From sequence record PV730300.1: a stretch of DNA of 64,000 bases. One strand, 5' to 3'. The stretch comes from a phage. The notes below the pieces were generated by a model. It saw only the letters and a program-made list of their open reading frames with translations, did no database searches and was not told the DNA's origin. The translations under genes and the position numbers were made by a program. Below, in pieces: positions 1,795-46,225 of this stretch. Position 1 is the stretch's first letter, and each line of letters begins with the position of its first letter.

Positions 1795-2636
1795 TACCTC
1801 TCCTTATTAAGTAATACTGCTAAAGACTGTTCAATACCTTTATTTAAATCTGATTTTGTAAGATAGTGACTGGTTACTAGTTGTGACTTCACCGGACGTG
1901 CTGCTGGAGCATTATAGGTTGAAGCTGATACCGCCGATATCTTAACAGGTTCTGGCATCTGTGTCAAGATCTTTTCCGCAAACTCCGCCCAAGAAATAAG
2001 ATGGCTTCCTGCAAAATGGTAAGTCTTAACAGACCTTGACCAACCTGTTTTTAATACTTCAAAAATAGCTTCTGCTAAATCTGGAGCATATGTTGGACAA
2101 GAGAACTGATCAGCAACAATAATAAAATCACGTTGTCCATCATTATAGCGAGACAACATGGTTTTTAGAAAGTTATTTCCAAATTCGCTATATACCGAGG
2201 CTGTTCGAATAATATATGCATTTGGGTTAACTCCTCGCACCATTTTTTCACCAAGTTCTTTCGTATACCCATAATTGTTTATTGGGTTAGGTGTAGTATC
2301 TTCAAAAATAGGATGAGAATAATTAAAAATATAGTCTGTAGAAATATGCACAAAATCAATTTTAAGTTTGCTGCACACTGCCGCAATATTTGCAGGTCCA
2401 TACGCATTAACAGCCAAAGCAGTAGCAAAATCATGTTCTGCTTTATCTACAGCCGTATAAGCAGCGCAGTTAATAACACCGTCTACATAATCTTCAACAA
2501 TAGCGTTTCGCACAGCTTCAAAATTTGTAATATCTACACGTTCTTTAGGATAAATTAAAGATACGTTTGAAGGAACCACTTTACGTAAAGCTTGTCCCAG
2601 TTGTCCATTACCACCCAATACCAGATATGTTAGCAT
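1794..2636 (-). CDS. rmlD: dTDP-4-dehydrorhamnose reductase-like (RmlD family) NAD(P)-dependent reductase
   Basis: N-terminal Rossmann motif LVLGGNGQLG, 280 aa, RmlD-like pattern; overlaps RmlC gene start. Confidence 0.6.
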   Translation of the reverse strand: MLTYLVLGGNGQLGQALRKVVPSNVSLIYPKERVDITNFEAVRNAIVEDYVDGVINCAAYTAVDKAEHDFATALAVNAYGPANIAAVCSKLKIDFVHISTDYIFNYSHPIFEDTTPNPINNYGYTKELGEKMVRGVNPNAYIIRTASVYSEFGNNFLKTMLSRYNDGQRDFIIVADQFSCPTYAPDLAEAIFEVLKTGWSRSVKTYHFAGSHLISWAEFAEKILTQMPEPVKISAVSASTYNAPAARPVKSQLVTSHYLTKSDLNKGIEQSLAVLLNKER

Positions 2637-8160: not shown

Positions 8161-8188
8161 ATTATACTAAAACTAATACTAAAGTCAA
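8161..8188 (-). promoter_or_regulatory. sigma70-like promoter on minus strand (TTGACT-N16-TATAAT)
   Basis: rc of 8183-8188 is TTGACT, rc of 8161-8166 is TATAAT, 16-nt spacer. Confidence 0.5.
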
Positions 8189-11002: not shown

Positions 11003-11258
11003 AATTTTCCTCCTGAATTCCTACTGCGCCGTCTTCTGGGTAGTCTGTATAATAAGCTACCCTACCTTGATAGATAACATCACCATCGCTATTGTAGATT
11101 GCTGTATCTTCTTGAATTGTTATTTCAACGTCAAGTAAATCTGGGTCTTTCTCGATGGTATAGTTCAAACCTAACATTTCAAACAGTTCGAAAATTTCGT
11201 TACCTGTTAATGTAATGCTCATATTTCCTCCTTTTATTGTGGTTAGCAGAGTATACAC
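10995..11258 (-). CDS. hypothetical protein
   Basis: ORF; preceded by a minus-strand promoter. Confidence 0.4.
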   Translation of the reverse strand: MYTLLTTIKGGNMSITLTGNEIFELFEMLGLNYTIEKDPDLLDVEITIQEDTAIYNSDGDVIYQGRVAYYTDYPEDGAVGIQEENYV

Positions 11259-11278
11259 TAATATAAAATTTTTGTCAA
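11250..11278 (-). promoter_or_regulatory. sigma70-like promoter on minus strand (TTGACA-N17-TATACT)
   Basis: rc of 11273-11278 is TTGACA, rc of 11250-11255 is TATACT. Confidence 0.5.
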
Positions 11279-13641: not shown

Positions 13642-13677
13642 GGCATAATATCATAACTAATCCCGCAAGTCAAGAAC

Positions 13678-22510: not shown

Positions 22511-22621
22511 TCTAGCCTCCTAAACGCGTCTCTGACGCACTTTTTATATATAAGATGATAAATCACCTTACCTAGTAAGTGAACTTGCTCTACGAGCCTC
22601 TTATGAAGCTTATGTTATAGG

Positions 22622-22649
22622 TTATACTATTGCTACCTGTTTAAGCAAG
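22622..22649 (-). promoter_or_regulatory. sigma70-like promoter on minus strand (TTGCTT-N16-TATAAC)
   Basis: rc of 22644-22649 and 22622-22627; sits in the divergent control region. Confidence 0.4.
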
Positions 22650-22991
22650 GTTTTTGCACACAGAAAATAATTTTTAATAAAACTCTTGACTTTTGTGTTC
22701 GAAGTATGCTACCCTAGAAATCTATTAACGAGCGCAGCGAGTTAAGGTTTTAGGTTGTTGATGTAGTACTCTGTACTCAAGTACTGTACTCCGTACTAGA
22801 TTAATAATTATTAAATATTAATAATAAATAATTATTAGATCTAACAAACAGGTACAGTGTATCAGAACTGGTACGTACAGATCAACTTCTATCAATTAAA
22901 AATAAAATAATAAATTATTATAAATAATACTTGATCTATAGATCAGTATGAAGTACAGTACGGAACATCTTAACAAGAATGGAGGTGTGCA

Positions 22992-23177
22992 ATGATTAGT
23001 GAGAATCCGTGCAAATGGCATCATGTGCCTATTAAAGATTGTATGTCTTGTAATCCACGTTCTATTTATAACATTGCATCTTATGATGATGACAATGTGT
23101 TAGACGATGATGAAGGCTGGGAGGATTTGGATTGGACTGGTTATGAAACCAAAAAGGATAAAATTATTCCTAGTTGA
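22992..23177 (+). CDS. hypothetical protein
   Basis: ORF; GGAGG ribosome-binding site. Confidence 0.4.
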   Translation: MISENPCKWHHVPIKDCMSCNPRSIYNIASYDDDNVLDDDEGWEDLDWTGYETKKDKIIPS

Positions 23178-23214
23178 CTTAAGATATCCTTCGTGCTAAA
23201 CTAGAAGTGAGGAG

Positions 23215-23466
23215 ATGCCGATCACTCCCCATTTGGGGTTCGAAGGATATATGCAAAATAGCTTTTATTTTAGGTGCCGTGCTTGTAATAGGCATTTGAC
23301 AAACCACTCCAGACGTGATAAAAATGGAGTCATCAAGGAATCAGACCTCTGTTCTATTTGCACAGGTTTGGCTTTTGATGATAGTCCCGAAAGGGTTTAT
23401 CAGCATCAATGTATAACAGACGTTCTCGTGTCAAACTTGGTAGAGGACGAACAACTAACAGATTAG
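23215..23466 (+). CDS. small Cys-rich protein
   Basis: CRACN...CSICTG Cys pairs. Confidence 0.35.
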   Translation: MPITPHLGFEGYMQNSFYFRCRACNRHLTNHSRRDKNGVIKESDLCSICTGLAFDDSPERVYQHQCITDVLVSNLVEDEQLTD

Positions 23467-23730: not shown

Positions 23731-23760
23731 TTGACAAACGTATCCTTCATATGTTAGGAT
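23731..23760 (+). promoter_or_regulatory. sigma70-like promoter at the head of the tRNA/RNA cluster
   Basis: CTATTGACA motif at 23731-23736, then about 17 nt and a TGTTAGGAT-type -10. Confidence 0.45.
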
Positions 23761-23762
23761 AC

Positions 23763-23952
23763 GTTCATCAAGTGTGGTAACAGGGTCGTTGACTTTTGTT
23801 AAGAGGGGCTTGCACTGCGGTAGTGTTAGAGACTACTTCTTCAGAGGTTAGCTACCAAAGAGGAAAAGGAATAGTCTCGGCTCAAGAACTTTTACGCTGA
23901 AAGTTGGGCTTGGTCTTAGAGAATGTAGCGGTTCTCTACAATCGTCAGCGTC
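23763..23952 (+). ncRNA. candidate structured small RNA 1
   Basis: Perfect 10-bp terminal helix GTGGTAACAG (23763-23772) / CTGTTACCAC (23943-23952) enclosing nested helices; no coding potential; no tRNA T-loop. Confidence 0.35.
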
Positions 23953-23969
23953 TCTGTTACCACATTTAT

Positions 23970-24044
23970 GGCCCTGTAGCTCAATGGGAGAGCTGTCGGC
24001 TCATAACCGATAGGTAGCTGGATCGAAACCAGCCAGGGCCACCA
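23970..24044 (+). tRNA. tRNA-Met (anticodon CAT)
   Basis: Manual cloverleaf: acceptor GGCCCTG/CAGGGCC, anticodon loop CTCATAA, CCA encoded. Confidence 0.7.
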
Positions 24045-24046
24045 AC

Positions 24047-24121
24047 GTCTTTATGGTGTAATGGATAGCACAGGAGTCTTCTAAACTCTTAGTCAAGGTT
24101 CGATTCCTTGTAAAGACACCA
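24047..24121 (+). tRNA. tRNA-Arg (anticodon TCT)
   Basis: Acceptor GTCTTTA/TAAAGAC, anticodon loop CTTCTAA, T arm CAAGG-TTCGATT-CCTTG. Confidence 0.65.
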
Positions 24122-24122
24122 G

Positions 24123-24306
24123 AACATTTTAACATGAATTAGCTCAAGTGATTTGAACCCACTACTGATCATGGTGGCAGAGAATGAGGCAAGTATGTCA
24201 GACATTATAAACAAAGGCCACGGTTATATTAGAAGACATAAATGCTCGAAGAGCACCGTTCGTTGAGAACGGGGGTTGGTGGAGTCACCATTCATGGTAA
24301 AATGTT
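24123..24306 (+). ncRNA. candidate structured small RNA 2
   Basis: 16-nt terminal helix AACATTTTAACATGAA (24123-24138) / TTCATGGTAAAATGTT (24291-24306), 15 of 16 paired, enclosing several hairpins. Confidence 0.35.
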
Positions 24307-24317
24307 TTAAAAAACTA

Positions 24318-24347
24318 TTGACAACTAACATTATTTTATGTTAGATT
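24318..24347 (+). promoter_or_regulatory. sigma70-like promoter (internal to the tRNA cluster)
   Basis: AAACTATTGACA at 24318-24323, 17 nt, TGTTAGATT-type -10. Confidence 0.45.
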
Positions 24348-24355
24348 ATAAGTAT

Positions 24356-24446
24356 GGAAGGGCAAATCGACGTGGCGACGAAAACGGTCTTGAAAACCGC
24401 CGAGCTTGAAAGAGCCTTGGGAGTTCGACTCTCCCTCCTTCCGCCA
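24356..24446 (+). tRNA. tRNA-Ser (anticodon TGA), class II
   Basis: Acceptor GGAAGGG/TCCTTCC, anticodon loop CTTGAAA, long variable arm, CCA encoded. Confidence 0.7.
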
Positions 24447-24451
24447 GATTA

Positions 24452-24537
24452 GGTAGATTGGTGAAATGGTAGCCACGACAGTTTGCTAAACTGTAGTCGG
24501 AAACGGCGTGTAGGTTCGAGTCCTACATCTACCGCCA
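24452..24537 (+). tRNA. tRNA-Ser (anticodon GCT), class II
   Basis: Acceptor GGTAGAT/ATCTACC, anticodon loop TTGCTAA, long variable arm. Confidence 0.7.
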
Positions 24538-24667
24538 AGTTCTTTTTAATATAGCTTACTTTAATAGAGTAAACTTTCGGCAGATGGCCCCCACCATCTT
24601 ACCGATAACTCATAGTTAGTGGTGTGAACACTGGCTATTTTAAAAAGAATTTAAATATTAGTATTTA

Positions 24668-24755
24668 GGTGAGTTAATTCCGTAGGGGTAGCGGGGCAGA
24701 CTGTAAATCTGTTATCATTGCGATTCGGGTGGTTCGACTCCATCACTCACCACCA
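24668..24755 (+). tRNA. tRNA-Tyr (anticodon GTA), class II
   Basis: Acceptor GGTGAGT/ACTCACC, anticodon loop CTGTAAA. Confidence 0.7.
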
Positions 24756-24761
24756 AATTAA

Positions 24762-24847
24762 GATGAGTTGGCTGAATGGTTTAAGCGGCGGACTGTTAAT
24801 CCGTGTTCGAAAGAACGATATAGGTTCAAATCCTATACTCATCGCCA
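24762..24847 (+). tRNA. class II tRNA, isotype uncertain (anticodon loop reads CTGTTAA, i.e. GTT)
   Basis: Acceptor GATGAGT/ACTCATC, T arm ATAGG-TTCAAAT-CCTAT, about 15-nt variable arm; anticodon assignment ambiguous by hand. Confidence 0.45.
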
Positions 24848-24937
24848 GAATTATGGACTTGTAGAGTTAAGGTAAACCCCCAGTCGCCAAGAGGCTTCTG
24901 AAATTGCAGGTATCGAATCCTGCCGAGTCCCAGCTTT

Positions 24938-25012
24938 GCTCCTATAGTATAATGGCTATTACAACGGTTTTGTAATCCGTGGATCTCTGTTCGATTCAGA
25001 GTGGGAGCACCA
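24938..25012 (+). tRNA. tRNA-Thr (anticodon TGT)
   Basis: Acceptor GCTCCTA/TGGGAGC, anticodon loop TTTGTAA, T arm CTCTG-TTCGATT-CAGAG. Confidence 0.6.
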
Positions 25013-25287
25013 ACACAACATTAAGAGCACTGTGATTGATCGTCGTATCCTGTGCACAAGGTCTGTTCGAAAGACAGTGTTCTTAGTATTGTGTTGATCA
25101 CACAAAAAGAGTTACCTGAAACTTGACCGGAGTAGGGTTGGATGGGGCAAAAGAAGAAGCGGCTCTCCCATCGACAGCAACGAAGAATAATATTTGACTT
25201 TGGTTTTGTATTATTTTAAGTTAGCTTACCGAACGTAGGGCTAGTCACCCAATGGGATACTCGTCACTGTCCCACTCAATAAAACTA

Positions 25288-25317
25288 TTGACAACCAATA
25301 GTAAAATGTAGTATAGT
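25288..25317 (+). promoter_or_regulatory. sigma70-like promoter (internal to the tRNA cluster)
   Basis: AAACTATTGACA at 25288-25293, about 18 nt, TATAGT. Confidence 0.45.
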
Positions 25318-25328
25318 AAAGATGTAGG

Positions 25329-25403
25329 GCGTTCTTGGTGTAGCGGTAGCATTCCGTCCTTCCAAGTCGGCGGCACGAGTTCGATCCTCGTAGAACGCTC
25401 CAA
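25329..25403 (+). tRNA. tRNA-Gly (anticodon TCC)
   Basis: Acceptor GCGTTCT/AGAACGC, anticodon loop CTTCCAA, T arm ACGAG-TTCGATC-CTCGT. Confidence 0.7.
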
Positions 25404-25500
25404 ATTATTTAATAAAGGGTTGCCAGAAAACTTTCTCTTTTACTCATGGTTTTCTCCTTCTCTCACACCTCTTCTGGTTGCCCTTCATTAAATGATTTAT

Positions 25501-25576
25501 TGGTTTGTAGTGTAGTCCGGTAGCACACGACACTTTGACTGTCGTAGGTTTGGTTCAAATCCAGACAGACCAGCCA
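25501..25576 (+). tRNA. tRNA-Gln (anticodon TTG)
   Basis: Anticodon stem CGACA/TGTCG, loop CTTTGAC, T loop TTCAAAT. Confidence 0.7.
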
Positions 25577-25581
25577 TATAA

Positions 25582-25658
25582 CGGAATTTAGCTCAGTTTG
25601 GTAGAGCATACGCTTTGGGAGCGTAGGGTCGCAGGTTCGAATCCTGCAATTCCGACCA
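25582..25658 (+). tRNA. tRNA-Pro (anticodon TGG)
   Basis: Acceptor CGGAATT/AATTCCG, D stem GCTC/GAGC, anticodon loop TTTGGGA, T arm CGCAGG-TTCGAAT-CCTGC. Confidence 0.8.
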
Positions 25659-25664
25659 ATTTAA

Positions 25665-25738
25665 TGTTTCGTAGTTCAATGGTAGAACCCACGACTGATA
25701 ATCGTGAGACACAAGTTCGATTCTTGTCGAAACAACCA
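25665..25738 (+). tRNA. tRNA-Ile (anticodon GAT)
   Basis: Acceptor TGTTTCG/CGAAACA, anticodon stem CACGA/TCGTG, loop CTGATAA. Confidence 0.75.
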
Positions 25739-25740
25739 GT

Positions 25741-25810
25741 TTCCCGTTAGACTTACAGGATAAGAGTTCCACAGCTTATTGTGATGCTGGTTCGAATCCA
25801 GCACGGGATA
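25741..25810 (+). tRNA. putative tRNA, anticodon not assignable by hand
   Basis: Canonical T arm GCTGG-TTCGAAT-CCAGC and pairing acceptor ends, but no clean anticodon arm could be folded. Confidence 0.3.
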
Positions 25811-25816
25811 CCTAAT

Positions 25817-25895
25817 AGCGGGATAGAGGAGTCTGGTCGTCCTCGCCAGTTTCATATGCTGGAGATCATCGGTTCGAATCCGATTCCCGCCTCCA
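25817..25895 (+). tRNA. tRNA-Met (anticodon CAT), possibly initiator-like or Ile2-type
   Basis: Anticodon loop TTCATAT, T arm ATCGG-TTCGAAT-CCGAT, A1-C72 mismatch at the top of the acceptor stem. Confidence 0.6.
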
Positions 25896-26009
25896 AATAT
25901 CGCTTGCCAGCGGTATCTTTGAAGACCTTGCCTGGTTCCTTCTAAGATGGAGGGGTGCGACTCCTTAACGCACAATTATAATAAAGCATTTCAACTTAAC
26001 AGTATTTAT

Positions 26010-35259: not shown

Positions 35260-35747
35260 TGGAAAGTGAGATCTTACCAGGTGACGATACAGATTGGGGA
35301 ACCATTATCAAAAAGATGATGGACCTTGAACAAGTTCAAATCGAAGCTGGTTTTTTAACAAACAAAAGGCATCCTGAATCAGATCTCACTATTCCTGCAA
35401 TAGCAGCTATTCAACAATATGGTAATGAAACAAACAACATACCTGCTCGCCCTTTTATAACAGATGGTGCTGTTATCTCACAGAACAATATCGCTAAAAA
35501 GATGAAGCAGGTGTTTGCAAATTACTTACTGAATAATGTCGGGTTAGCTGTTTTTGAGCCTATAGCGAGAGCCTCTAGAGAAGGAATAGCTCAAGCGATT
35601 GCAATGCAACGTTATCGTCCTTTATCTCCTGTGACAATTAAGATACGACAAGATAAAGGCAACTATTCTAATCATATCTTAATAGATACGGCACACATGA
35701 TAAATGCAATCGAAACAAAAATCACAAAAAGCAAGTCTAAAAAATAA
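35259..35747 (+). CDS. neck / head completion protein (putative)
   Basis: Position only. Confidence 0.35.
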   Translation: MESEILPGDDTDWGTIIKKMMDLEQVQIEAGFLTNKRHPESDLTIPAIAAIQQYGNETNNIPARPFITDGAVISQNNIAKKMKQVFANYLLNNVGLAVFEPIARASREGIAQAIAMQRYRPLSPVTIKIRQDKGNYSNHILIDTAHMINAIETKITKSKSKK

Positions 35748-35748
35748 C

Positions 35749-35777
35749 TTGCATAAACTTTGTTTTTGATGTATACT
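35749..35777 (+). promoter_or_regulatory. sigma70-like promoter (TTGCAT-N17-TATACT)
   Basis: TTGCAT at 35749-35754, TATACT at 35772-35777. Confidence 0.45.
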
Positions 35778-35792
35778 AAAAAGGAGATACAA

Positions 35793-36209
35793 GTGTTACT
35801 AGATCAATTTACTCTCCTTGATCTAACTGAATACCAAGGTCGTAGACGAGTCTACAAAGAGGCCGTTGGTTCAGTTATTGCTAACTTAGAAAGTAGTGTA
35901 GAATATGAACCATTTACTATTGAAGCTGCAAGCTTACAACCGATATCTGGTAAAACACTGAATGCACTACCTGAAGGTTACAGATCTAAGGCTCAATATA
36001 GTTTCTGGACTAAAACAGAAATGAAGGGGTTACAACAAGGAACAGAACAGTTATCAGATCAGATATTGATAGATGGTAAATGGTATTCTGTTTATTCCCT
36101 TAAAGATTGGACCAGAACATCTTTCTTAGTCCATCATCACTGTGTTGCAATATTAGACGATCAAAACAACTCCTGGTCTTATGGAACAGAAGGAGGAAAC
36201 TTTGGCTAA
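35793..36209 (+). CDS. tail completion / neck protein (putative)
   Basis: GTG start with AAGGAG upstream. Confidence 0.35.
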   Translation: MLLDQFTLLDLTEYQGRRRVYKEAVGSVIANLESSVEYEPFTIEAASLQPISGKTLNALPEGYRSKAQYSFWTKTEMKGLQQGTEQLSDQILIDGKWYSVYSLKDWTRTSFLVHHHCVAILDDQNNSWSYGTEGGNFG

Positions 36210-36840
36210 TATTTACCAACAAATAGAAGCATACGAAAATGCCATCTACTTAAATATAGGTGGCTTCCTTCAAGAATTAGTGGGGTTGCCAGTCTATGTT
36301 ATGGATAAGCCATTCATTAAACCGGATACTCCTTACCTAGCACTACGTATTATCACTTCCAGCGATTCTGGAGGTTGGTCTTACCGAAGCTCTATTCAAA
36401 ATGATATGTATTCCTACGAGATGGATAATACCTACGAGATTGAACTTGTAGCCTATCGTGGAAGACCTACCACTTTGATGAGCTATGTTCTGGCTGCTCT
36501 CCGTGGTGCAGAGGAATTAAAATACAAACATCTCTATTCTAAAGGTCTTGGTTTTTTAGGAGCCTCCAATATAGCTCAAGCCAATACAATTGTAGACGGA
36601 GATAAGACTGAATTAAGAGCGCGTATGGTTATGACGTTCAACACTCGTATGAGTATTGAAGATATTGCTACTACACCAATAGAAGCAATCAACATGCACA
36701 TCCGTTCATTCAGAGATAGTTACAATGATCCTATCCCTTTAGATTTAATTCTAAACAGGGTTTATGCAATTACTTTGGTTCCAGGCGAATACTCGTCAGT
36801 CAATCAAAATGGATCATTATTTAACAACCCTACCGAATAA
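36181..36840 (+). CDS. tail-associated protein (putative; start may be the TTG at 36202)
   Basis: ORF overlapping the upstream gene end; AAGGAGG precedes the in-frame TTG. Confidence 0.35.
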   Translation: MEQKEETLANIYQQIEAYENAIYLNIGGFLQELVGLPVYVMDKPFIKPDTPYLALRIITSSDSGGWSYRSSIQNDMYSYEMDNTYEIELVAYRGRPTTLMSYVLAALRGAEELKYKHLYSKGLGFLGASNIAQANTIVDGDKTELRARMVMTFNTRMSIEDIATTPIEAINMHIRSFRDSYNDPIPLDLILNRVYAITLVPGEYSSVNQNGSLFNNPTE

Positions 36841-36874
36841 ACTCATTGGAATTAAGTTTCTAACAGGAGCATAA

Positions 36875-38248
36875 ATGGCAACTTTTCGTGAAAAGGTAGC
36901 AACCGTAACTTTACTGTATGGTGCTACATCAATTCGTGAAACCCAGTTCGATATTCCCCTGATCCTTACAGGTCAGAACGTAACTGGCGAAGCGATTCAA
37001 TATTACTCTTCTTCCGATGCACTTTTGGAAGCAGGTTATGGATTAAATGATCCAGCGTATATTATGGCAGTCAAACTGTTTAACGGTTTGTTCCCACCAG
37101 ATCAAGTCATGGTTGGTAAGCGTGAAGTTACAAACTTTACTCTAACTCCAATCGTAGAAGATAGTGCAACTTACACAATTACCATCAAAAATGGTACCAA
37201 GAAAAAAGAATTTAAATTCATTGCTGATGACACTGCAACTGCACAAGAGATTGTAGTTGGTCTGACTGAAATGATCAATGCAGATCTTGTTTATGGCCCA
37301 CTGTTTACAGTAGCTAACAACGGCGCTGCAATGACTTTCACTCCAGTAGAAGGTAAGTTTGGTTCTATTGACAGCACAGGTTTCACTCAAGAAACTGTCT
37401 ATGCTAATGCTATTACGGAAGATATCGCTGCTCTGCATGATATTGATAGTAGCTGGTTCTGGACCCTTTCAGATTCCCATGAAACAGAAGATGTTCTAGC
37501 TTTGGCTGCATGGGTAGAAGAGAATGATAAAGTTTACTTCTTCTCTAGCTCTGAACCTGGAATTAAAACGAAAGCAGAAGATAACGTTCTGGAACGACTG
37601 AATGACCTCGGTTATAATAACACTTGCTTTGCTTTGTGGATGACCGATGCAGATTCTGTATTCCCAGAAGCGGCAGTTGTTGGTGCAATCTGTTCTCGTC
37701 AACCTGGTTTAACTACTCTTCACGGTAAAACACTGGTAGGTGTAGAGATCGAGAAACTGGATCAGACTTCGGAAAACAATATTGTTCAACAGAACGGTAA
37801 CATCTATCGTAAAGAGCATGGAACTCTGTTCTATCGTGATGGATTGATGGTTAGCGGTTTCTTTGTTGACTATGTTGTTCATGCTTTGTGGTTTAAAGCT
37901 CGCACAGAAGAATCACTGTTTACACTGTTTAAACAACAGTCTATGCTGGGTGGTGGTGTTCGTGCTACTTCAAACGGTCTGGCTTTGATTCGACAAGCTG
38001 TTCTGGCTAACCCGATCCAAGTAGGTATCCTCAACGGTTCCATCGCTAATGAAGTTGTTACTTCTGAAGAGACTGGTTTGCGTGTCGATCTGAAACCTAT
38101 TGTTTATATTCCTTCTCGTGCCGATATGACTGATGCGCAAATCAATGCTCGTCTGGTCGATGGGATGAAGATTGAATATGTTTACGCTGGCTTCTTCCAT
38201 TACGTTAAAGTTCAGGTCAACGTCCTGACTAACCGTACTGCAAACTAA
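36875..38248 (+). CDS. tail sheath protein (putative)
   Basis: 457 aa, high-expression codon usage, immediately upstream of a tube-sized gene. Confidence 0.5.
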   Translation: MATFREKVATVTLLYGATSIRETQFDIPLILTGQNVTGEAIQYYSSSDALLEAGYGLNDPAYIMAVKLFNGLFPPDQVMVGKREVTNFTLTPIVEDSATYTITIKNGTKKKEFKFIADDTATAQEIVVGLTEMINADLVYGPLFTVANNGAAMTFTPVEGKFGSIDSTGFTQETVYANAITEDIAALHDIDSSWFWTLSDSHETEDVLALAAWVEENDKVYFFSSSEPGIKTKAEDNVLERLNDLGYNNTCFALWMTDADSVFPEAAVVGAICSRQPGLTTLHGKTLVGVEIEKLDQTSENNIVQQNGNIYRKEHGTLFYRDGLMVSGFFVDYVVHALWFKARTEESLFTLFKQQSMLGGGVRATSNGLALIRQAVLANPIQVGILNGSIANEVVTSEETGLRVDLKPIVYIPSRADMTDAQINARLVDGMKIEYVYAGFFHYVKVQVNVLTNRTAN

Positions 38249-38252
38249 TACG

Positions 38253-38275
38253 GCGGGGGTTAAGCCCCCGTTATC
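38253..38275 (+). terminator. terminator-like hairpin after the sheath gene
   Basis: CGGGGG-TTAA-CCCCCG hairpin with a weak T tract. Confidence 0.4.
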
Positions 38276-38294
38276 AAAATAAAGAGGATCTATA

Positions 38295-38774
38295 ATGGAT
38301 AAAATGCTTACTGGCGTAATGGCCTACGACCCATCTCAAGTTATCCTTTCATTAGGTGGTTGGGAACCGTGGGGTTTTGCGGCTGATACTAAAATCGTTA
38401 TTGCTAAATCTAACGATATTATCAACCCTTATGCAGGGACTGATGGCGACGTTTCACTAGCTTTGAGTCGTAACCGTTTGGGAACACTCACAATGTCTTT
38501 GCAACGCACATCTCCAGCTAACGAAGTACTTGCAACATATGCACAAACAATGTATTCTACTCGTCAAGTAGCATTCAGCGTTTACTTGGAAGACCCACGT
38601 GGCTATTACATTAGCACGATTGGATGGATTCAAAGTCAGCCTGAAGATACTATTGGCGAAATGATTACAGAGAACCAATGGGTTATTGGTCTTAAAGATG
38701 CAAGCCTTCTGCGTAATGAAGTTGGTGTAGGTTTGAGCACCCTTAACTCAATCTCTGCTCTGACAATTCAATAA
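38295..38774 (+). CDS. tail tube protein (putative)
   Basis: 159 aa following the sheath gene. Confidence 0.45.
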   Translation: MDKMLTGVMAYDPSQVILSLGGWEPWGFAADTKIVIAKSNDIINPYAGTDGDVSLALSRNRLGTLTMSLQRTSPANEVLATYAQTMYSTRQVAFSVYLEDPRGYYISTIGWIQSQPEDTIGEMITENQWVIGLKDASLLRNEVGVGLSTLNSISALTIQ

Positions 38775-38781
38775 TAAATAA

Positions 38782-38803
38782 AGGGCAGAAATGCCCTTTT
38801 TAT
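38782..38803 (+). terminator. intrinsic terminator
   Basis: AGGGCA-GAAA-TGCCCT hairpin followed by TTTTT. Confidence 0.6.
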
Positions 38804-38819
38804 CATTAGAGAGGAAAAT

Positions 38820-39302
38820 ATGTCACAAGAACAAGATAACACAATTCAAAAATATGCTCGACCAGAAGAAGTAGTTGAGATTCCGTTAGATGGAAACAGA
38901 TCTGTTACTTTCCGTATTATGAAGTGGAGTCCATCTAAAGTGTTTGACAGGATTCCAGAATTGGGTAGTGTTCTGGTTGTTCCTATGACTATGTATAGCA
39001 CAGCAACAATGTCCGCAGACGAAGACCTTGAGTCACGTATTGCTATGGCACTGATCCAACTTTTTGCGGGTTTGGAAGAAAAGAATTTAACTGTCTTTTT
39101 GCGTAAAATTTTAGATGAGGTTTATACTCAAGACGGTTATAACGTTGCAGAAAATTTTGATGAATTATTTATGGCTCACCCAGAACTAGTGTTAGATCTT
39201 ACTGCTAAAGTTCTGGAGGTAAACTACGGCCCTTTTTTCAAACGAGGTTTCGGAAAACTGTTCACACAGCTTCAGGCGATGACGAGTTTAGCAGCAAATT
39301 AA
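38820..39302 (+). CDS. tail assembly chaperone (putative) with candidate -1 frameshift extension to 39568
   Basis: Slippery heptamer T_TTT_TTC at 39233-39239 in frame 0; the -1 frame is open from there to 39568. Confidence 0.45.
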   Translation: MSQEQDNTIQKYARPEEVVEIPLDGNRSVTFRIMKWSPSKVFDRIPELGSVLVVPMTMYSTATMSADEDLESRIAMALIQLFAGLEEKNLTVFLRKILDEVYTQDGYNVAENFDELFMAHPELVLDLTAKVLEVNYGPFFKRGFGKLFTQLQAMTSLAAN

Positions 39303-39564
39303 CACCTGCGATTGAACATGCTATCGACACAGCAACGAAAACCCTTACTTTGAAGTGGTATGAGGTTATTCTTTGCAAAGTCGTTAAAGATACCTCGGAA
39401 ACACTGAAAACATTGGATAACTACGGTGTAGATTATCTTTTAAAACTATATGAGTATTTAACATACGAAGAGTATGTTGAAGCCATGTATGTTAAAGACA
39501 CTTCAATAAAGAGAAAACATCAAAACCAAACAAATAAAATGTCAGATTTGTTTAAGAAACTTGT

Positions 39565-39593
39565 TTGACTTTAAAACGTCACGGTGGTATACT
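39565..39593 (+). promoter_or_regulatory. sigma70-like promoter (TTGACT-N17-TGgTATACT) upstream of the endonuclease ORF
   Basis: TTGACT at 39565-39570, TATACT at 39588-39593. Confidence 0.5.
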
Positions 39594-39620
39594 TCTTTTA
39601 TTGAATAGAGGAGGAACATC

Positions 39621-40937
39621 ATGCGTGGCGTTTTAAATATTATAGGTCAAGACCCAAACAATCCAGACAAAATTCTGGTTACATGCTCTATCTGTTCAGA
39701 AGATAAAGAACTTTATCCTCAACCTTTCAGCATGTTCAAAAGTAACTTTGGTAGGCAAACACCTTGTGGTTGCTCAAAATGTCCAAAACTAAGTGAAGAT
39801 CAAGCCTACATTGTAGCAAAGAGAGCTACAGAAGCTTTAGGATACACTTTTTTAGGTTGGAGTAAAGAATACACAGGCTCAAGTTCTACAAAAATCCGTT
39901 GTGTTTGTCCTGAACATGGGGAATGGAACACTGGTATAATTTCAACGATTCGGAAGGGTGTGGGTTGTCCAAAGTGTGTAGATCCTAGGAAAAGAAAAGA
40001 TTTAGTAAAAGCTGAAGATTTCTTGGCAACAGGCTTCTTTGAAGATGGGACTACTTTTACCAAATCTGAAAGAAAAGATAAAAATGGTTGGAGTCCTTAT
40101 TGGTTTGTTACCTGCCCTACATGTTCAAATGATAAGTTTGTAAAAGCTGGACTTTGCTCTGGTATCTTTGAAGGCATGAAGTCTAATCTTTTGAAGGGTG
40201 CTAAACCTTGTCGTTGTTCTTCAAGGTATGTATACACTGAAGAGCAATATATTTTACGAATTAACACTGAAACACCTTATAGCTTTATTCGTTGGATTGG
40301 GAAGTTTAAAGGTAATCGCTCAAAAGTTGTAGTTTTTTGCGAAGAACATGGCGGTGAGATAGAGATGACTGTTTTTGGTTTGTTATCGGGAAACCGTTGT
40401 ATTACTTGTCACGGACACAAACCGAAACCAGAGACTGACATGAAAGAACAATTGAAAAAGGTTTGTGAGGAACGTGGATACACTTTTGTAAAGCTTATTG
40501 ATTACAAATCAAATAAGAGTTCTTTTCAATACTCTTGCAAAACCCACGGCATCCAACAAATATCAATCACAAACTTTATACACGGTGAACAAGGTTGTCC
40601 AGAATGTAGAGGTAAAAATCAGACCTATGCTTATATTCACCTGGTGGAAGATGAGGGTCTTGGTATTATTGGTCTTAAATTTGGAATAACAAAAAATCCA
40701 AGAATAAGAATAAGGCAACAGAATCGACTTGCTAAATATAAACTACGCAAGTTTAAGTTATATAGATTTGAAACTGTGGCAGCTTGTCGCACCGCAGAGA
40801 AAGAAGTGAAAGACGTTTTACCTTGCGGAGTTTTCTCCCAACAAGACATTCCAGACGGGTGGACAGAGACAACTTATATCTACAACCTGGAAAACATTAT
40901 GAAAATCTTTGAAGATAATGGAGGAATACTTTGTTAG
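39621..40937 (+). CDS. homing endonuclease-like protein: five tandem Cys-rich zinc-ribbon repeats plus C-terminal T5orf172 / GIY-YIG-like domain
   Basis: Repeated Cys-pair zinc-ribbon modules (e.g. CPEHG...CPKC, CEEHG...CITC, CKTHG...CPEC); C-terminal YIHLVEDEGLGIIGLKFGIT...R...Q pattern; own ribosome-binding site (GAGGAGG); lies directly 5' of the intron core. Confidence 0.5.
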   Translation: MRGVLNIIGQDPNNPDKILVTCSICSEDKELYPQPFSMFKSNFGRQTPCGCSKCPKLSEDQAYIVAKRATEALGYTFLGWSKEYTGSSSTKIRCVCPEHGEWNTGIISTIRKGVGCPKCVDPRKRKDLVKAEDFLATGFFEDGTTFTKSERKDKNGWSPYWFVTCPTCSNDKFVKAGLCSGIFEGMKSNLLKGAKPCRCSSRYVYTEEQYILRINTETPYSFIRWIGKFKGNRSKVVVFCEEHGGEIEMTVFGLLSGNRCITCHGHKPKPETDMKEQLKKVCEERGYTFVKLIDYKSNKSSFQYSCKTHGIQQISITNFIHGEQGCPECRGKNQTYAYIHLVEDEGLGIIGLKFGITKNPRIRIRQQNRLAKYKLRKFKLYRFETVAACRTAEKEVKDVLPCGVFSQQDIPDGWTETTYIYNLENIMKIFEDNGGILC

Positions 40938-40994
40938 AAATTAACGCCTTAACTTAGGGGCTAATGTGTAGTGATACACATTATCAACTTTGTG

Positions 40995-41185
40995 AATTGC
41001 TGGGACACCCTTAGAGCCACACTACCACTGCGAATCGAAAGATGAAGCCACGGTTTGAAAAGTGTGTGGATTGGGTAATCAGCAGCCAAGCTCCGTTTAG
41101 GAGAAGGTTCAACGACTATCCCGTAAGGGAGTAGGATCAAGTGGTCCGAAGCGCAAAGCGTCTCATGTAGATGAAGATATAGTCT
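40995..41185 (+). ncRNA. group I intron catalytic core (P, Q, R, S elements)
   Basis: P-like AATTGCTGGGAC (40995-41006), Q AATCAGCAGC (41077-41086), R GTTCAACGACTA (41107-41118), S AAGATATAGTCT (41174-41185), in canonical order, with GACTAT/ATAGTC able to form P7. Confidence 0.7.
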
Positions 41186-41264
41186 AATCTGTAGGGAAAC
41201 TTACAGCAGCGAAAGCGGGGAAGAATTAACGAATCTTCCCGAATACAATGCAAAAATTAGTAAC

Positions 41265-43220
41265 GTGGTTACGTTTAAGGTGGACAAGAACAGTCTCAAG
41301 GAAGCAAAAGATGCCGTGTTGAGTGTTCAGAAGTTTGCAAATAAAATGCAACCCACTATGAACATGACCAAGTTTAGACAACAAATGAAAGAGATTGAGC
41401 GTGAACTTAAGAAAGCTCAAACTCAAAGTCAAAAACCTATGCGAGCACCTACTCCCGCTGGAGCGGGTGCTCCTGTAGGTGGATCTGGCAGACCTAGAAC
41501 TCCTAAAACCCCGCAAGGAAGAGAAGAAGAAAAAGCTCGTAAAGCGGCTGAACGCGAAGCTAAAGCAGCAGCACGTAGGGAAGATTTAGGTAATCTTCGT
41601 TTGCAGAACTTTAACTACCGAGCAAAAGCATTTAGTAAAGCCAGTCCTGGCGCTATGCAAGAAGCTAGAGACGTTATGGGTAAAGCTGTAGAGCAATATA
41701 AGAAGGGTGAAATAACTCTTCAACGTATGAACCAAGCTCTTGCTCACCAGTTAGATGCTTTACGCAGATCTCATCGTGAAAAGAATGCTGAAATAGAAGA
41801 CGAGGTTCGCGGTCGTCGCCGTATTCGTAGAGAGCTAGAAGCAGAAGCTAAAATGCGTATACGTATGCGAAACCGTGAACTTAGAGATATAGAACGCAAC
41901 CGTAAGCGTGAATTAGCTCAGCAAAAACGTGATCGTGATCGTCGATATGGACAATTAAAAGAAGGTGCAGCAGGTCTTAATCCACGCATGATTGCATCCT
42001 CTTTGATAGGTGCTGGACTGTTTGCAGGTGGTTCTGTAGTTGGTAACACTTTGATGAATACTAACGAAAGAATTAAAATGGTTAGTCGCGGTGCTGAAAA
42101 CGTCCAAACGAATGCTAACTCTATTTTAACAATGACCGCATGGGGTGAACAAAACGGTGTAGACTCGGCAAATATCATTAAAGCAATAGATAACATTAAA
42201 GACGTTCGTGAACGTCTAGGTAATACCATGATGAACACCAAATGGAACGCAAAAGAAGGGAAATGGAAAGGTGGTGATAACGGTATTACTGATATTATGA
42301 ATGCTTTTGGTTGGAACCCCGATCAAATAAAACATTTGCAAAATGACCCGTTAGCTTTTATCCAAGCCACTGTTAATGAAGGCGAACGTCGAGGCATGAA
42401 CTCTGCTCAAATCGGGCGACTTCTTGAAAACCTTGGTGATGACCTTATGCACTACCAACGTATGTTTAGTAAAAACGGCGAAGGGTATAACGAAGTATTG
42501 AAAATGCTTCAAAGAACAGGTGCAACATTAACTCAAGAACAAATAGATGCTTCTAAAGAGTTTACTCGTTTTGCTGCAACAGTTCAGCTTGTAGGTCAAG
42601 GTATGCAGAACCATTTCCTGGAAGGTTTTGTAAAAGCTTTACCTAAAGATGATTCTTGGTTGGATAATGTTAAAGTGCTAGATCAGTTCGCCAAAGATTT
42701 AGGTGAAGAACTTGGTAAAACAACAGTTCAACTTGGTGGTTTTGCTAAAGAATTGGGAGATGGTTTCGGATCTTTTACCAATTGGCTTAAAGAAACATTC
42801 CCCGATACCTTCGGAGACAACACAGATCCTAATAAATCTATGGCACAAAAAGCATATGAGGCAACGCAAAGTGGAGACAGTAACCCTGTAGCAGATTGGT
42901 TGTACAATTTAACAGGTATTGATACACAAGATATTGGTCGTATGTGGAGAGGAGAGCAAACAAGGACACGTGCTTTTGGATTTGGTAATCCTCTTGAGGA
43001 TTTACGTGAATCAGCCTATACACCTAACGTAAGTTTGGCTCGTAATCAACCTGTTGTTGAGAATACGGTAGCAATACCAAGTGATCTTATCAAAGTTACG
43101 ATCAGCCCTTCTTCCGAGTTTGGAAATATTCTTGATGCAAGAATTCAAAACAGCGGAAATAGCATTTTCCAACGTTTGTCTCTTTCAACTCTAAGTGGAC
43201 AATCTAACACTGGTGGTTAA
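41265..43220 (+). CDS. tail tape measure protein (putative); 5' end probably supplied by splicing
   Basis: 651 aa, coiled-coil and basic-rich, followed by a strong terminator; the listed GTG start has no ribosome-binding site and the frame is open upstream to 41175. Confidence 0.55.
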   Translation: MVTFKVDKNSLKEAKDAVLSVQKFANKMQPTMNMTKFRQQMKEIERELKKAQTQSQKPMRAPTPAGAGAPVGGSGRPRTPKTPQGREEEKARKAAEREAKAAARREDLGNLRLQNFNYRAKAFSKASPGAMQEARDVMGKAVEQYKKGEITLQRMNQALAHQLDALRRSHREKNAEIEDEVRGRRRIRRELEAEAKMRIRMRNRELRDIERNRKRELAQQKRDRDRRYGQLKEGAAGLNPRMIASSLIGAGLFAGGSVVGNTLMNTNERIKMVSRGAENVQTNANSILTMTAWGEQNGVDSANIIKAIDNIKDVRERLGNTMMNTKWNAKEGKWKGGDNGITDIMNAFGWNPDQIKHLQNDPLAFIQATVNEGERRGMNSAQIGRLLENLGDDLMHYQRMFSKNGEGYNEVLKMLQRTGATLTQEQIDASKEFTRFAATVQLVGQGMQNHFLEGFVKALPKDDSWLDNVKVLDQFAKDLGEELGKTTVQLGGFAKELGDGFGSFTNWLKETFPDTFGDNTDPNKSMAQKAYEATQSGDSNPVADWLYNLTGIDTQDIGRMWRGEQTRTRAFGFGNPLEDLRESAYTPNVSLARNQPVVENTVAIPSDLIKVTISPSSEFGNILDARIQNSGNSIFQRLSLSTLSGQSNTGG

Positions 43221-43226
43221 TAAAAT

Positions 43227-43250
43227 ACCTCGCTTCGGCGGGGTTTTTTC
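43227..43250 (+). terminator. intrinsic terminator (UUCG tetraloop)
   Basis: ACCTCGC-TTCG-GCGGGGT hairpin followed by TTTTTT. Confidence 0.7.
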
Positions 43251-43257
43251 GTTTCCC

Positions 43258-43287
43258 TTGACACGAAGTTTCTATATGTGTTACAAT
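43258..43287 (+). promoter_or_regulatory. sigma70-like promoter (TTGACA-N18-TACAAT)
   Basis: TTGACA at 43258-43263. Confidence 0.45.
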
Positions 43288-43346
43288 AATCAATATGGGA
43301 AGATCTTGCATCTTCCTTTTGGCATTATCATTACTACGAGGTTATC

Positions 43347-44056: not shown

Positions 44057-44470
44057 ATGGCAACATATTCTAAGACAACCCGATCTACAAGCAACTCTGG
44101 TTATAGTGCAGTATATTTAGAAGATCATTCAACATACTTTGCGTGGTATTTGAAAACAGAGGAATATCCAGATCAAACTTATACGGTAACTTTAGATGGG
44201 GTTGATTACGACATTCGTTTAAGGTGGAACACTAGGGACGAGTCTTGGCAATGTCAAATAGGGCTGTCTGGAGACGATCCAAGTATTACTTTTAAAGTTA
44301 CAAATGGTTTAGATCTTCTTAAACCTTATAAATATCTTGAAAGTGTGCCAGATGGTCAATTATATATAGTAGATACAGTCAAGATTAATGGTCGTCCTGG
44401 GTATACAACTACAGGTCGAGATAAACGTTTTGTATTGGTTTATATTGATAACAAACCTAATCAGGCGTAA
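44057..44470 (+). CDS. baseplate/tail protein (putative)
   Basis: Position in the tail module. Confidence 0.35.
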   Translation: MATYSKTTRSTSNSGYSAVYLEDHSTYFAWYLKTEEYPDQTYTVTLDGVDYDIRLRWNTRDESWQCQIGLSGDDPSITFKVTNGLDLLKPYKYLESVPDGQLYIVDTVKINGRPGYTTTGRDKRFVLVYIDNKPNQA

Positions 44471-44479
44471 GGAGATAAT

Positions 44480-45490
44480 ATGGCAGAAAGAGAGTATACA
44501 AAAGCTCCTGCCCCTAATTTAAACAGGGCATACAAATTATTAATTGGTTCTGCCACAAACACAATACAGAAGAGAACTAAGAACTCGGCATTTAAATCTA
44601 CAGTAGATTTGGATACCAAGTTAGGGACAACAGAAAAATCCTCTTCTAATTTGTATTTGTTGCAAGACCATCAAATAACCTTCAGTATTAAGAAAGATAA
44701 TAACAAAGATCCTAACCAAGCAGAGATTGTAGTTTATAACCTTTCGGATGATACTGTTAACTATATAAACCGTGGTATCCGAAATAACTTGGCTGTTGCT
44801 TTAGCGGTAGGATACGAAGGTGAAGAGTTGGTTATGATCTTCAAAGGAACTATCCAGTGGGTTAGTGATACTTTTGACTCGGTAGACAGGAAAACCACTT
44901 TACACTGTTTAGATGGCGGTATTAACATTGCAGAAGCAAGAACAAGCCGCAGTTATCCAAAAGGAACTAAAATAAAACGTGTTGTGACAGATTTAGTAAA
45001 GGATTTAGGAACTACAGAAGGTAATATACACGTAGATAATGATCAAACCTTATCCTCAGCAACAGCTATGTGTGGAAACACTTCACATTACCTAGAACAT
45101 ATTTGTAAAAGTATTGATCACAATGTGTCAATACAAGATGGATCTGTTTATGTCACTCCTCGTTCACAAATGTCTAGTGCACGTAGCGCCTATATTAGCC
45201 CTGAAACTGGTCTGATAGGAAGTCCAGAACCATTCCACAACGATATAAAACCTACTAAAAAAGTTACCAAGTCCTCTAAGAAGGCAAAGAAACCTACAGA
45301 TGGTGTTAAATTCAAATGCCAAATGAATGGTGCAATATTACCAGAAAAAACAATCTGGTTAAAAAGCCGAGATTATGATGGTCCATTTAAAGTTGTTTCT
45401 GTTTCTCACAATGGTGATAAAGAGGGTAAAGAGTGGGTTACTGAAGTGGAGTGTGTATCCGTGTCTGAAATAATGACTAAGGAGAAATAA
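44480..45490 (+). CDS. baseplate hub-like protein (putative)
   Basis: Position in the tail module. Confidence 0.35.
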   Translation: MAEREYTKAPAPNLNRAYKLLIGSATNTIQKRTKNSAFKSTVDLDTKLGTTEKSSSNLYLLQDHQITFSIKKDNNKDPNQAEIVVYNLSDDTVNYINRGIRNNLAVALAVGYEGEELVMIFKGTIQWVSDTFDSVDRKTTLHCLDGGINIAEARTSRSYPKGTKIKRVVTDLVKDLGTTEGNIHVDNDQTLSSATAMCGNTSHYLEHICKSIDHNVSIQDGSVYVTPRSQMSSARSAYISPETGLIGSPEPFHNDIKPTKKVTKSSKKAKKPTDGVKFKCQMNGAILPEKTIWLKSRDYDGPFKVVSVSHNGDKEGKEWVTEVECVSVSEIMTKEK

Positions 45491-46224: not shown

Positions 46225-46225
46225 C

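Follow-up and report, generated by a model that had tools for sequence, protein, structure and literature searches.

Gene organization of the window

The DNA analyzed here is a 64,000-nucleotide stretch of phage sequence (record PV730300.1), referred to below as the window, and the elements in question are promoter-like sequences that recur along it, each with a -35 hexamer, a spacer and a -10 hexamer. The window comes from a Phapecoctavirus. These phages are E. coli myoviruses of the phAPEC8 type, have genomes of about 150 kb and belong to the subfamily Stephanstirmvirinae; over a 10-kb piece, the window shares 99.0-99.4% identity with many of their published genomes. The layout was read from the annotation of close relatives together with the open reading frames (ORFs) of the window itself. 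Minus-strand genes for nucleotide and DNA metabolism occupy positions 1-22510 and are followed by a non-coding divergent region (22511-22991). From 22992 on all genes lie on the plus strand, with baseplate and fibre genes reaching 63683 (Table 1).

Promoter-like elements on both strands

A first-pass annotation had listed ten plus-strand sites that combine a near-consensus -35 element, a spacer of 17-18 nt and a frequently TG-extended -10 element, as well as three minus-strand equivalents that follow terminator hairpins, and had read them as a phage-specific promoter class used by host RNA polymerase. All ten plus-strand sites were found exactly where they had been placed. The spacing was likewise as described, with 17 nt at 26053, 29477, 31169, 35749 and 39565 and 18 nt at the other five. 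The near-consensus -35 element holds for eight sites, which carry TTGACA (23731, 24318, 25288, 29477, 31169 and 43258) or TTGACT (26053 and 39565), but not for 26489 and 35749, whose TTGCAA and TTGCAT hexamers are weak and match the consensus at 4 of 6 positions. The TG extension is canonical (TGn, with TG at -15/-14) at 6 of the 10 sites, namely 23731, 24318, 26053, 26489, 39565 and 43258; at 29477, 31169 and 35749 the TG abuts the -10 hexamer, and at 25288 there is none. The longer -35 element CTATTGACA, said to be frequent, occurs at only 4 of the 10 sites (23728, 24315, 25285 and 31166) and is not general. Three of these four are promoters of the tRNA region that share the longer repeat AAAACTATTGACAAC, and they look like paralogous copies.

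On the minus strand, where sites are named below by their higher coordinate, 11278 and 8188 are good promoters by their sequence. The third proposed site, TTGCTT-16-TATAAC at 22622..22649, was rejected: it scores 3.8 bits, has no T at the invariant last position of the -10 element and is indistinguishable from chance, as 5,545 positions of the window score at least 2.8 bits and 358 at least 7.8 bits. The 11278 site does follow a terminator, but at 8188 the hairpin lies downstream of the -10 element. Three sites that the first-pass annotation did not contain were added, at 13673(-), 23174(+) and 22686(+). The minus-strand sites 8188, 11278 and 13673 all carry TTGACT or TTGACA; TG stands at -15/-14 at 13673 too, is shifted by one base at 11278 and is absent at 8188.

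Nineteen sites were compiled. All have a -10 element of the form TAnnnT, and the spacers are 16 nt (1 site), 17 nt (11 sites) or 18 nt (7 sites). Information is confined to TTGAC(A/T), the TG that precedes the -10 element, TAnAnT, an A right after the -10 element and ten A/T-rich bases upstream of the -35 element. Positions three to five of the -10 element vary, as they do in host promoters. A search of the compilation for a conserved CTA prefix or for further conserved positions found nothing beyond A-richness, the CTA prefix being confined to the three paralogous tRNA-region promoters and one other site. The elements do not bear out a phage-specific class, since the -35 hexamer, the spacing of 17-18 nt, TGn and the TAnnnT -10 element are all canonical. 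The -10 forms TAAGAT, TAGGAT, TAGATT and TATACT, which had been called unusual, keep the three strongly conserved positions and differ only where E. coli promoters vary.

Table 1. Predicted promoters, hairpins, terminators and genes of the window. Numbers between hexamers are spacer lengths in nt; TG in brackets abuts the -10 element.
Feature	Position	Strand	Score (bits)	Context
Promoter TTGACA-18-TGtTAGGAT	23731..23760	+	12.8	~210 nt upstream of first tRNA (tRNA-Met, 23970)
Promoter TTGACA-18-TGtTAGATT	24318..24347	+	12.7	tRNA-like gene 24356-24442 starts 9 nt past -10
Promoter TTGACA-18-TATAGT, without TGn	25288..25317	+	14.0	tRNA-Gly (25329) starts 12 nt past -10
Promoter TTGACT-17-TGtTAAGAT	26053..26081	+	12.0	21 nt before ATG of 26103-26399
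Promoter TTGCAA-18-TGaTAAGAT, weak -35	26489..26518	+	7.8 (hexamers)	21 nt before ATG at 26540
Promoter TTGACA-17-(TG)TATTAT	29477..29505	+	14.0	between terminase stop (29473) and portal gene (29575)
Promoter TTGACA-17-(TG)TAGACT	31169..31197	+	14.5	upstream of prohead protease-scaffold-decoration-capsid block (31234 onward)
Promoter TTGCAT-17-(TG)TATACT, weak -35	35749..35777	+	9.6	15 nt before GTG at 35793
Promoter TTGACT-17-TGgTATACT	39565..39593	+	13.9	predicted to drive homing-endonuclease-like ORF 39621-40937
Promoter TTGACA-18-TGtTACAAT	43258..43287	+	14.3	upstream of baseplate and tail genes (43347 onward)
Promoter TTGACT-16-TATAAT	8161..8188	-	13.7	downstream of thyX
Promoter TTGACA-17-(TG)TATACT	11250..11278	-	15.2	top match of the window
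Additional promoter TTGACT-17-TGaTATTAT	13645..13673	-	12.7
Additional promoter candidate TTGACT-17-TGcTAAACT	23174..23202	+	12.6	upstream of small ORF 23215-23466
Additional candidate TTGACT-18-TGcTACCCT	22686..22715	+	10.5	divergent region, ~276 nt upstream of first plus-strand ORF
In-gene candidate TTGACA-17-TGtTAAGAT	1939..1967	-		sense strand, TG-bearing
In-gene candidate	15921-15949	-		sense strand, TG-bearing
In-gene candidate	18095-18124	-		sense strand, TG-bearing
In-gene candidate	48754-48783	+		sense strand, TG-bearing
In-gene candidate	55812-55840	+		sense strand, TG-bearing
Terminator	11285-11303			directly upstream of 11278(-) promoter
Terminator hairpin	13621-13644			begins right after -10 of 13673(-)
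Terminator	26011-26029			ends 24 nt before 26053 promoter
Terminator and T-run	26450-26471			directly before 26489 promoter
Hairpin	29514-29544			-21.5 kcal/mol, z = -3.6; starts ~2 nt after predicted start of 29477
Terminator	43227-43244			ends 13 nt before 43258 promoter
tRNA cluster	23970-25895	+		preceded by small ORFs
tRNA-like gene	24356-24442			Rfam 37.4 bits as tRNA-Sec, under gathering score; missed by ARAGORN
tRNA-like gene	24668-24752			Rfam 39 bits as tRNA; missed by ARAGORN
Spanin, then terminase and portal genes	terminase 27398, portal 29575	+
Prohead protease gene	31234	+		Pfam Peptidase_S78_2; then scaffold, decoration and capsid genes
Sheath, tube and tape-measure genes	sheath 36875, tape measure 41265	+		then baseplate and fibre genes
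Homing-endonuclease-like ORF	39621-40937	+		438 aa; five CapR-homology domains (2.6e-46), DUF723, weak T5orf172 match
Group I intron, ORF-less	~40950-41250			Rfam RF00028, 92.9 bits, E = 5e-24

Enrichment and orientation of the elements

The possibility was considered that the matches are non-functional by-products of AT-rich intergenic sequence and of the T-runs of terminators. The window is 61% A+T, and a loose sigma-70 scan, accepting at least 9 of the 12 hexamer positions, indeed showed no enrichment over shuffled sequence; only the high-scoring, TG-bearing and oriented subset is enriched. Because the loose scan was not enriched, a scored matrix combined with strand and intergenic controls was adopted. 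The matrix was built only from the textbook frequencies of the E. coli sigma-70 consensus, the TG was left out of the score, and both strands were scanned (about 128,000 positions). Expected counts were taken from shuffles that preserve dinucleotide composition.

TTGACA-N16-19-TAnnnT has 18 matches in the window against 5.3 expected, TATTGACA has 11 against 3.9, and CTATTGACA is present in 6 copies against 0.81. The full pattern TTGACW-N14/15-TGn-TAnnnT occurs 12 times in the window where 0.42 would be expected, a number reached by 0 of 100 shuffles, and all 12 copies lie on the locally transcribed strand. The extended -10 motif TGnTA(A/G)GAT alone is also more frequent than expected (18 versus 5.5), but its matches are split evenly between sense and antisense (9 and 9), and for want of any strand bias it was rejected as a stand-alone signal of promoters independent of a -35 element.

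The six highest matrix ranks among the ~128,000 positions are taken by sites of this set, each of them lying between genes and in the same orientation as the genes. Among the matches of at least 12 bits, those in intergenic sequence are 12 sense and 0 antisense, as opposed to 10 and 9 within genes, where equally high hexamer pairs stand antisense at, for example, 34363, 31703, 56049 and 52378. When the intergenic regions of at least 40 nt were taken one by one (n = 30), 11 had a sense match of this strength and none an antisense match; shuffles of the same regions gave a mean of 0.43 and a maximum of 3. The sense scores of intergenic regions exceed the antisense scores (Wilcoxon p = 2e-4). Moreover, TGn, which does not enter the score, has a baseline of 7% but is found in 7 of the 12 intergenic sense matches (p = 6e-6). 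Of all sense matches 12 of 22 carry it, and of the antisense matches 0 of 9. The same asymmetry is seen inside genes (5 of 10 sense, 0 of 9 antisense). The five TG-bearing sense candidates within genes (Table 1) sit in coding sequence that is ~87% identical, and conservation there is uninformative.

Conservation in diverged relatives

Five diverged lineages were compared, phi92, phiWec181, KP13-26, 05F01 and ECGD1, in which the flanking genes are 67-80% identical. The best matrix match in the corresponding intergenic region was taken as the orthologous promoter. The distance from the -10 element to the start codon is nearly constant in 6 of 8 families and, in a seventh, in all lineages but one. 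Upstream of the portal gene (29477) it is 70, 65, 72, 65 and 54 nt, with TTGACAAAA kept in five lineages, and upstream of the protease gene (31169) it is 37, 37, 36 and 37 nt. The 35749 family has 16 nt in four lineages and keeps TTGCA(T/A)-17-TGTATACT in four, with a predicted 5' untranslated region that is very short. In the 26053 family the distance is 19-21 nt in 3 of 4 lineages, the best match of 05F01 lying 52 nt upstream and not being equivalent. TGaTA(A/T)GAT at 26489 is kept together with its distance of 21-22 nt in phi92, phiWec181 and KP13-26.

The sites of the tRNA region behave in a similar manner. The architecture TTGACA-18-TGtTAGATT of 24318 is identical in phi92 and phiWec181. 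The site before tRNA-Gly (25288) keeps its 12-nt distance in three lineages, phi92 and phiWec181 among them, and has 25 nt in KP13-26. The orthologue of 23731 lies at an equal distance of 212 nt in phiWec181 and at 298 nt in phi92. On the minus strand, the 8188 promoter is kept in ECGD1 and 05F01. The 11278 promoter has no counterpart in either of these two and is lineage-specific.

The spacers are much less constant, their first 11 bases being only 24-68% identical between lineages. In contrast, 30 of 32 sequences retain the TG beside the -10 element, although it played no part in the score. It is kept in all four lineages at the two sites with a weak -35 element, 26489 and 35749, a pattern that would fit the idea that an extended -10 element tolerates the loss of -35 contacts.

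Terminators, hairpins and inverted repeats next to the predicted promoters

At four sites (26053, 26489, 43258 and 11278) the -35 element is preceded, at a distance of 7-24 nt, by the end of a terminator hairpin with a T-run. At 13673 the arrangement is different, as the hairpin begins right after the -10 element. Transcripts initiated at this promoter would not contain the 5' arm of the stem, whereas those coming from upstream would meet the full hairpin. Both promoter and hairpin are kept in ECGD1 and 05F01, with stems of differing sequence. Downstream of 29477, four other lineages have a hairpin of their own at the same position in the portal leader (read by eye, lineage by lineage; the sequences do not align). 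At 8188 a hairpin is located near +6 of the predicted transcript (region 8120-8188); it is present in three lineages, and ECGD1 and 05F01 each have their own. The hairpins adjoining 13673, 29477, 8188 and 43258 could serve in leaky termination, in stabilization of the 5' end, or both.

Two promoters are enclosed by inverted repeats. The 23731 promoter is embedded in a repeat with 16-nt arms (23731-46 / 23756-71) that, as read by eye, change together in phiWec181. The 31169 promoter lies within ATATCC-N18-GGATAT, which brackets the -10 element, in an intergenic region (31135-31240, before the prohead protease gene) that is 87% conserved compared with ~76% identity in the flanking genes. The window contains only four TATCC-N5-30-GGATA pairs, of which two bracket a -10 element. 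These palindromes could be operators or hairpins of transcripts arriving from upstream.

Predicted promoters in the complete genome of a relative

The 149-kb genome of the relative Phapecoctavirus anhysbys was assembled from four loci. Its matches of at least 12 bits include 33 intergenic sense and 2 intergenic antisense sites, and they occur in the early, middle and structural regions. Outside the part corresponding to the window, at 44,100-53,500, about 20 stereotyped cassettes stand before nearly every small early ORF. Each consists of an A-rich stretch, TTGACA, 16 nt, a -10 element of the form TAAGAT, TAAACT or TAATAT, the sequence GTAT(C/T)ACA and a conserved GGGCGG...CCGCC stem-loop; the array can also be written TTGACA-N16-TAAGAT/TAAACT-GTATCACA. 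Since these cassettes carry them, -10 elements of the TAAGAT type are common in this phage. The window sites differ from the early array in their spacer of 17-18 nt rather than 16 nt and in not being stereotyped.

Proposed function and points that weigh against it

The motif is real and highly non-random, as the statistics, the orientation, the conservation of position and the pairing with terminators demonstrate. The set as a whole very probably consists of functional host-type sigma-70 promoters, the individual weak sites being less certain. From the rank of the sites under a sigma-70 matrix, their co-oriented placement upstream of genes, their positional conservation and the annotation of anhysbys, which contains no RNA polymerase or sigma factor, we infer that they are used by the sigma-70 holoenzyme of the host, as the first-pass annotation had supposed. 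The positions at which transcripts start and the timing during infection are inferred as well. The statement about anhysbys concerns annotation only, in a genome in which most proteins are hypothetical and no whole-proteome profile search was made.

In E. coli promoters the -35 element is read by region 4.2 of sigma, the TG by region 3.0 and the -10 element by region 2.4. The host RNA polymerase with sigma-70 would read the phage sites in the same way, as strong promoters composed of TTGACA or TTGACT, a spacer of 17-18 nt and usually a TG in front of TAnnnT, with A-rich sequence upstream. The TG may compensate for a weak -35 element (26489 and 35749) or for a -10 element that departs from TATAAT. 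The promoters would split this arm of the genome into short transcription units. Three sites would feed the tRNA cluster, and two of these (24318 and 25288) are predicted to start transcription within a few nt of a tRNA 5' end. The other plus-strand sites would restart transcription after or across terminator hairpins, for a small gene, the portal gene and the spanin-terminase, protease-scaffold-capsid, tail and baseplate blocks, and three or four minus-strand sites would do likewise on the DNA-metabolism arm.

Several observations weigh against this interpretation. The conservation of the hexamers is partly circular because orthologues were picked as the best matrix matches; position and the TG are independent evidence. 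In the postTMP family the distance from the -10 element to the start codon is not constant (60, 48, 60, 6 and 4 nt over five lineages). By hexamers alone 26489 and 35749 are weak (7.8 and 9.6 bits), and a TG that abuts the -10 element, as at 29477, 31169, 35749 and 11278, may have no extended -10 action. Additionally, a stable hairpin lies just past the predicted start at 29477 and 8188, and a T-rich stretch follows the downstream hairpin at 29477 and at 43258 (hairpin at about 43299-43316, in the region 43258-43320), so that part of the transcripts from the latter two might terminate early. The presence of near-consensus sigma-70 promoters before structural genes gives no account of why these genes are expressed late. 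Finally, no start-site data for Phapecoctavirus or Stephanstirmvirinae and no expression data for Phapecoctavirus were found in the searchable literature.

Regarding timing, it was considered, as a long shot, that promoter architecture alone could separate the gene classes. Early genes would be served by the cassettes, with their 16-nt spacer, 5' hairpin and invariable start of the transcript, and TG-extended promoters with 17-18 nt spacers, interleaved with terminator hairpins or inverted repeats, would serve the tRNA, DNA-metabolism and structural genes. The switch might be made by supercoiling, by a phage factor that blocks the -35 element or by a repressor that binds the palindromes, without any new sigma factor. 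Examples of such interleaving are a predicted start inside the terminator stem at 13673 and palindromes across the -10 element at 23731 and 31169.

Alternative explanations

It is improbable that the sites form a phage-specific class read by a host polymerase that a phage factor has modified, either an activator of the MotA/AsiA type acting at TTGC(A/T)(A/T) or a sigma-like protein, with the -10 variants TAAGAT, TAGGAT and TATACT as its signature. The TTGCAA and TTGCAT hexamers of two sites, with TTGCTT in orthologues, do recall the TGCTT core of the T4 MotA box. However, that box has its centre close to -30, at a distance of 11-13 nt from the -10 element, and the TTGC-type hexamers occupy the sigma-70 -35 position 17-18 nt away; the MotA-box reading was rejected on this spacing. 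Recognizable subfamilies of promoters do exist, in that the early array has a 16-nt spacer and the window sites 17-18 nt, the late timing wants explaining, and most phage proteins have no assigned function; these points speak for it. Against it, every -10 element fits TAnnnT, a generic matrix finds the sites, the supposed signature TGnTA(A/G)GAT has no strand bias on its own, and no positions are conserved besides the -35 element, the TG, the -10 element and A-richness. Neither MotA nor AsiA, nor a sigma factor or RNA polymerase, is annotated in anhysbys, with the same restriction to annotation as above. A late promoter of the T4 type was rejected as well, as its motif TATAAATA is not enriched (8 matches versus 5.1 expected, with 16 of 100 shuffles reaching eight) and no match precedes the start of a structural gene.

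It is very unlikely that the conserved blocks are primarily operators of a phage regulator, or RNA hairpins that terminate or stabilize adjacent transcripts, and overlap promoter-like hexamers by accident. The arms around 23731 that co-vary in phiWec181, the palindrome at 31169 in its well-conserved intergenic region, the two of four TATCC/GGATA pairs that bracket a -10 element and the hairpins that follow or overlap 13673, 29477, 8188 and 43258 count in favour of this explanation. However, the spacing between the arms differs (11 versus 18 nt), making a single dimeric regulator unlikely, and most sites have no such repeat. Furthermore, from one lineage to the next the hairpins change in sequence but the promoter hexamers are retained, so that what the lineages have in common is the promoter. 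Operators or hairpins would add to the promoter explanation and not replace it.

Hardly any credence can be given to the by-product explanation introduced above, which is already disfavoured by the shuffles, by the empty antisense strand of the same intergenic regions, by the confinement of TG enrichment to the sense strand and by the conservation of position and TG while spacers change.

Relation to known promoters

The window sites resemble the extended -10 promoters of E. coli in having a TTGACA-like -35 element, a spacer of 17 ± 1 nt, TAnnnT, TG at -15/-14 in 6 of 10, A-rich sequence upstream and an orientation shared with the genes. They differ from the average E. coli promoter in being much nearer to consensus, with 10-11 of 12 hexamer positions plus the TG. 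TGn is present in roughly 20% of E. coli promoters, and its occurrence in 7 of 12 intergenic sites of the window is about three times that proportion (p = 0.004). Unlike in E. coli extended -10 promoters, the TG is moved by one base toward the -10 element in four sites.

Promoters of this kind have been predicted in rV5, a member of the Vequintavirinae, for which 33 sigma-70-consensus promoters were listed, distributed over both the early and the late parts of the genome; 11 have an extended -10 element (Kropinski et al. 2013, PMC3606486). Table S4 of that study includes a tRNA promoter and the -10 elements TGaTAAGAT and TGTAAGAT, and its authors concluded that retargeting of the host polymerase might not occur (PMC3606486). 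The "late" motif TggTAaAAtA of rV5 (PMC3606486) reads as an extended -10 element; it has no -35 element, whereas the structural-gene promoters of the window keep TTGACA or TTGCA(A/T). Moreover, rV5 belongs to a different subfamily and its sites are not homologous in sequence to those described here. In Certrevirus phages, a promoter of the form AAAA-N3-TGTTGAC-N19-TATAAT has been reported, concentrated in early regions (PMC7344957).

Consensus-like host promoters that recur between small genes in association with a stem-loop are also found in T4-type phages, as PeSL (promoter-early-stem-loop) cassettes, and in phage T5, whose sigma-70 promoters are strong. The early array of anhysbys, with its promoter and GGGCGG...CCGCC hairpin, is a stereotyped cassette of this type, and in the window the promoters at 8188, 13673, 29477 and 43258 are likewise followed by a hairpin. 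The window sites do not form such a cassette: their spacers and hairpins vary individually, the spacing is 17-18 nt instead of 16 nt, and the genes served are tRNA, DNA-metabolism and structural genes, not early ORFs. The window sites have the architecture of canonical sigma-70 promoters that are strong and often TG-extended. Such promoters had already been predicted in a sister subfamily, and the sites are not a new class.

For the Phapecoctavirus phage ASO2A one paper counts 9 promoters, none of which is annotated in this region in its record. Nor are promoters marked in this region in the records of Phapecoctavirus anhysbys, nieznany, ESCO13 and phiWec181, Justusliebigvirus phi92 or the unassigned Klebsiella phages KP13-26 and 05F01. 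The sites have annotation value, as these phages are widely isolated and are used in phage-therapy collections, and the public records that were opened mark no promoters here. The sites define the likely transcription units of the tRNA cluster and of the packaging, head, tail and baseplate genes. The understanding of promoter recognition is unchanged. As predicted for rV5, near-consensus host promoters precede structural genes, and the question therefore moves from which polymerase is used to how late timing arises. Of most interest beyond this are the means by which structural genes behind near-consensus host promoters are held back until late, and the frequent interleaving of promoter elements with hairpins or inverted repeats. 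As compact, conserved E. coli promoters with short leaders, predicted to be strong, the sites may also be of use in engineering.

The tRNA region and the divergent region

The two tRNA-like genes that ARAGORN missed (Table 1) are labelled in relatives, that at 24356-24442 as tRNA-Ser(TGA) or pseudo-tRNA and that at 24668-24752 as tRNA-Tyr. A scan of the surroundings of the tRNA region against Rfam returned nothing besides tRNAs. Some 200 nt (23770-23967) separate the predicted start of the 23731 promoter from the first tRNA. An imperfect inverted repeat of 35 nt (23770-23804 / 23933-23967) closes this stretch, which has no Rfam match and may represent either a structured leader or a tRNA that has degenerated.

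In the divergent region, TGnTACCCT of the 22686 site is kept in phi92 and phiWec181. This site is followed downstream by direct repeats rich in GTACT (22760-22800) and then by AT-rich palindromes (22800-22930). A leftward promoter for the minus-strand arm was sought in 22511-22991, where the best matches had 10.2 and 9.9 bits, their conservation was unclear and none was convincing.

A mobile insert that carries the 39565 site

The predicted promoter at 39565 belongs to a rare mobile insert and not to the core phage. Relatives lack window positions 39567-41250 (1.7 kb), and only the first two T of the 39565 -35 element belong to the shared flank. The insert is located between a gene of the tail-chaperone region and the tape-measure gene and contains the homing-endonuclease-like ORF, directly followed by the group I intron of Table 1. 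The intron interrupts the tape-measure gene 19 nt into its coding sequence, one base past the sixth codon. The predicted splice, in which 40931-40949 are joined to 41251 onward, restores LLEINASKISNVV, identical to the uninterrupted gene of anhysbys, and with it the exact N-terminus found in relatives. Among 50,697 phage records the insert was found only in phage nepoznato, in whose record the intron is unannotated and the start of the tape-measure gene is shortened.

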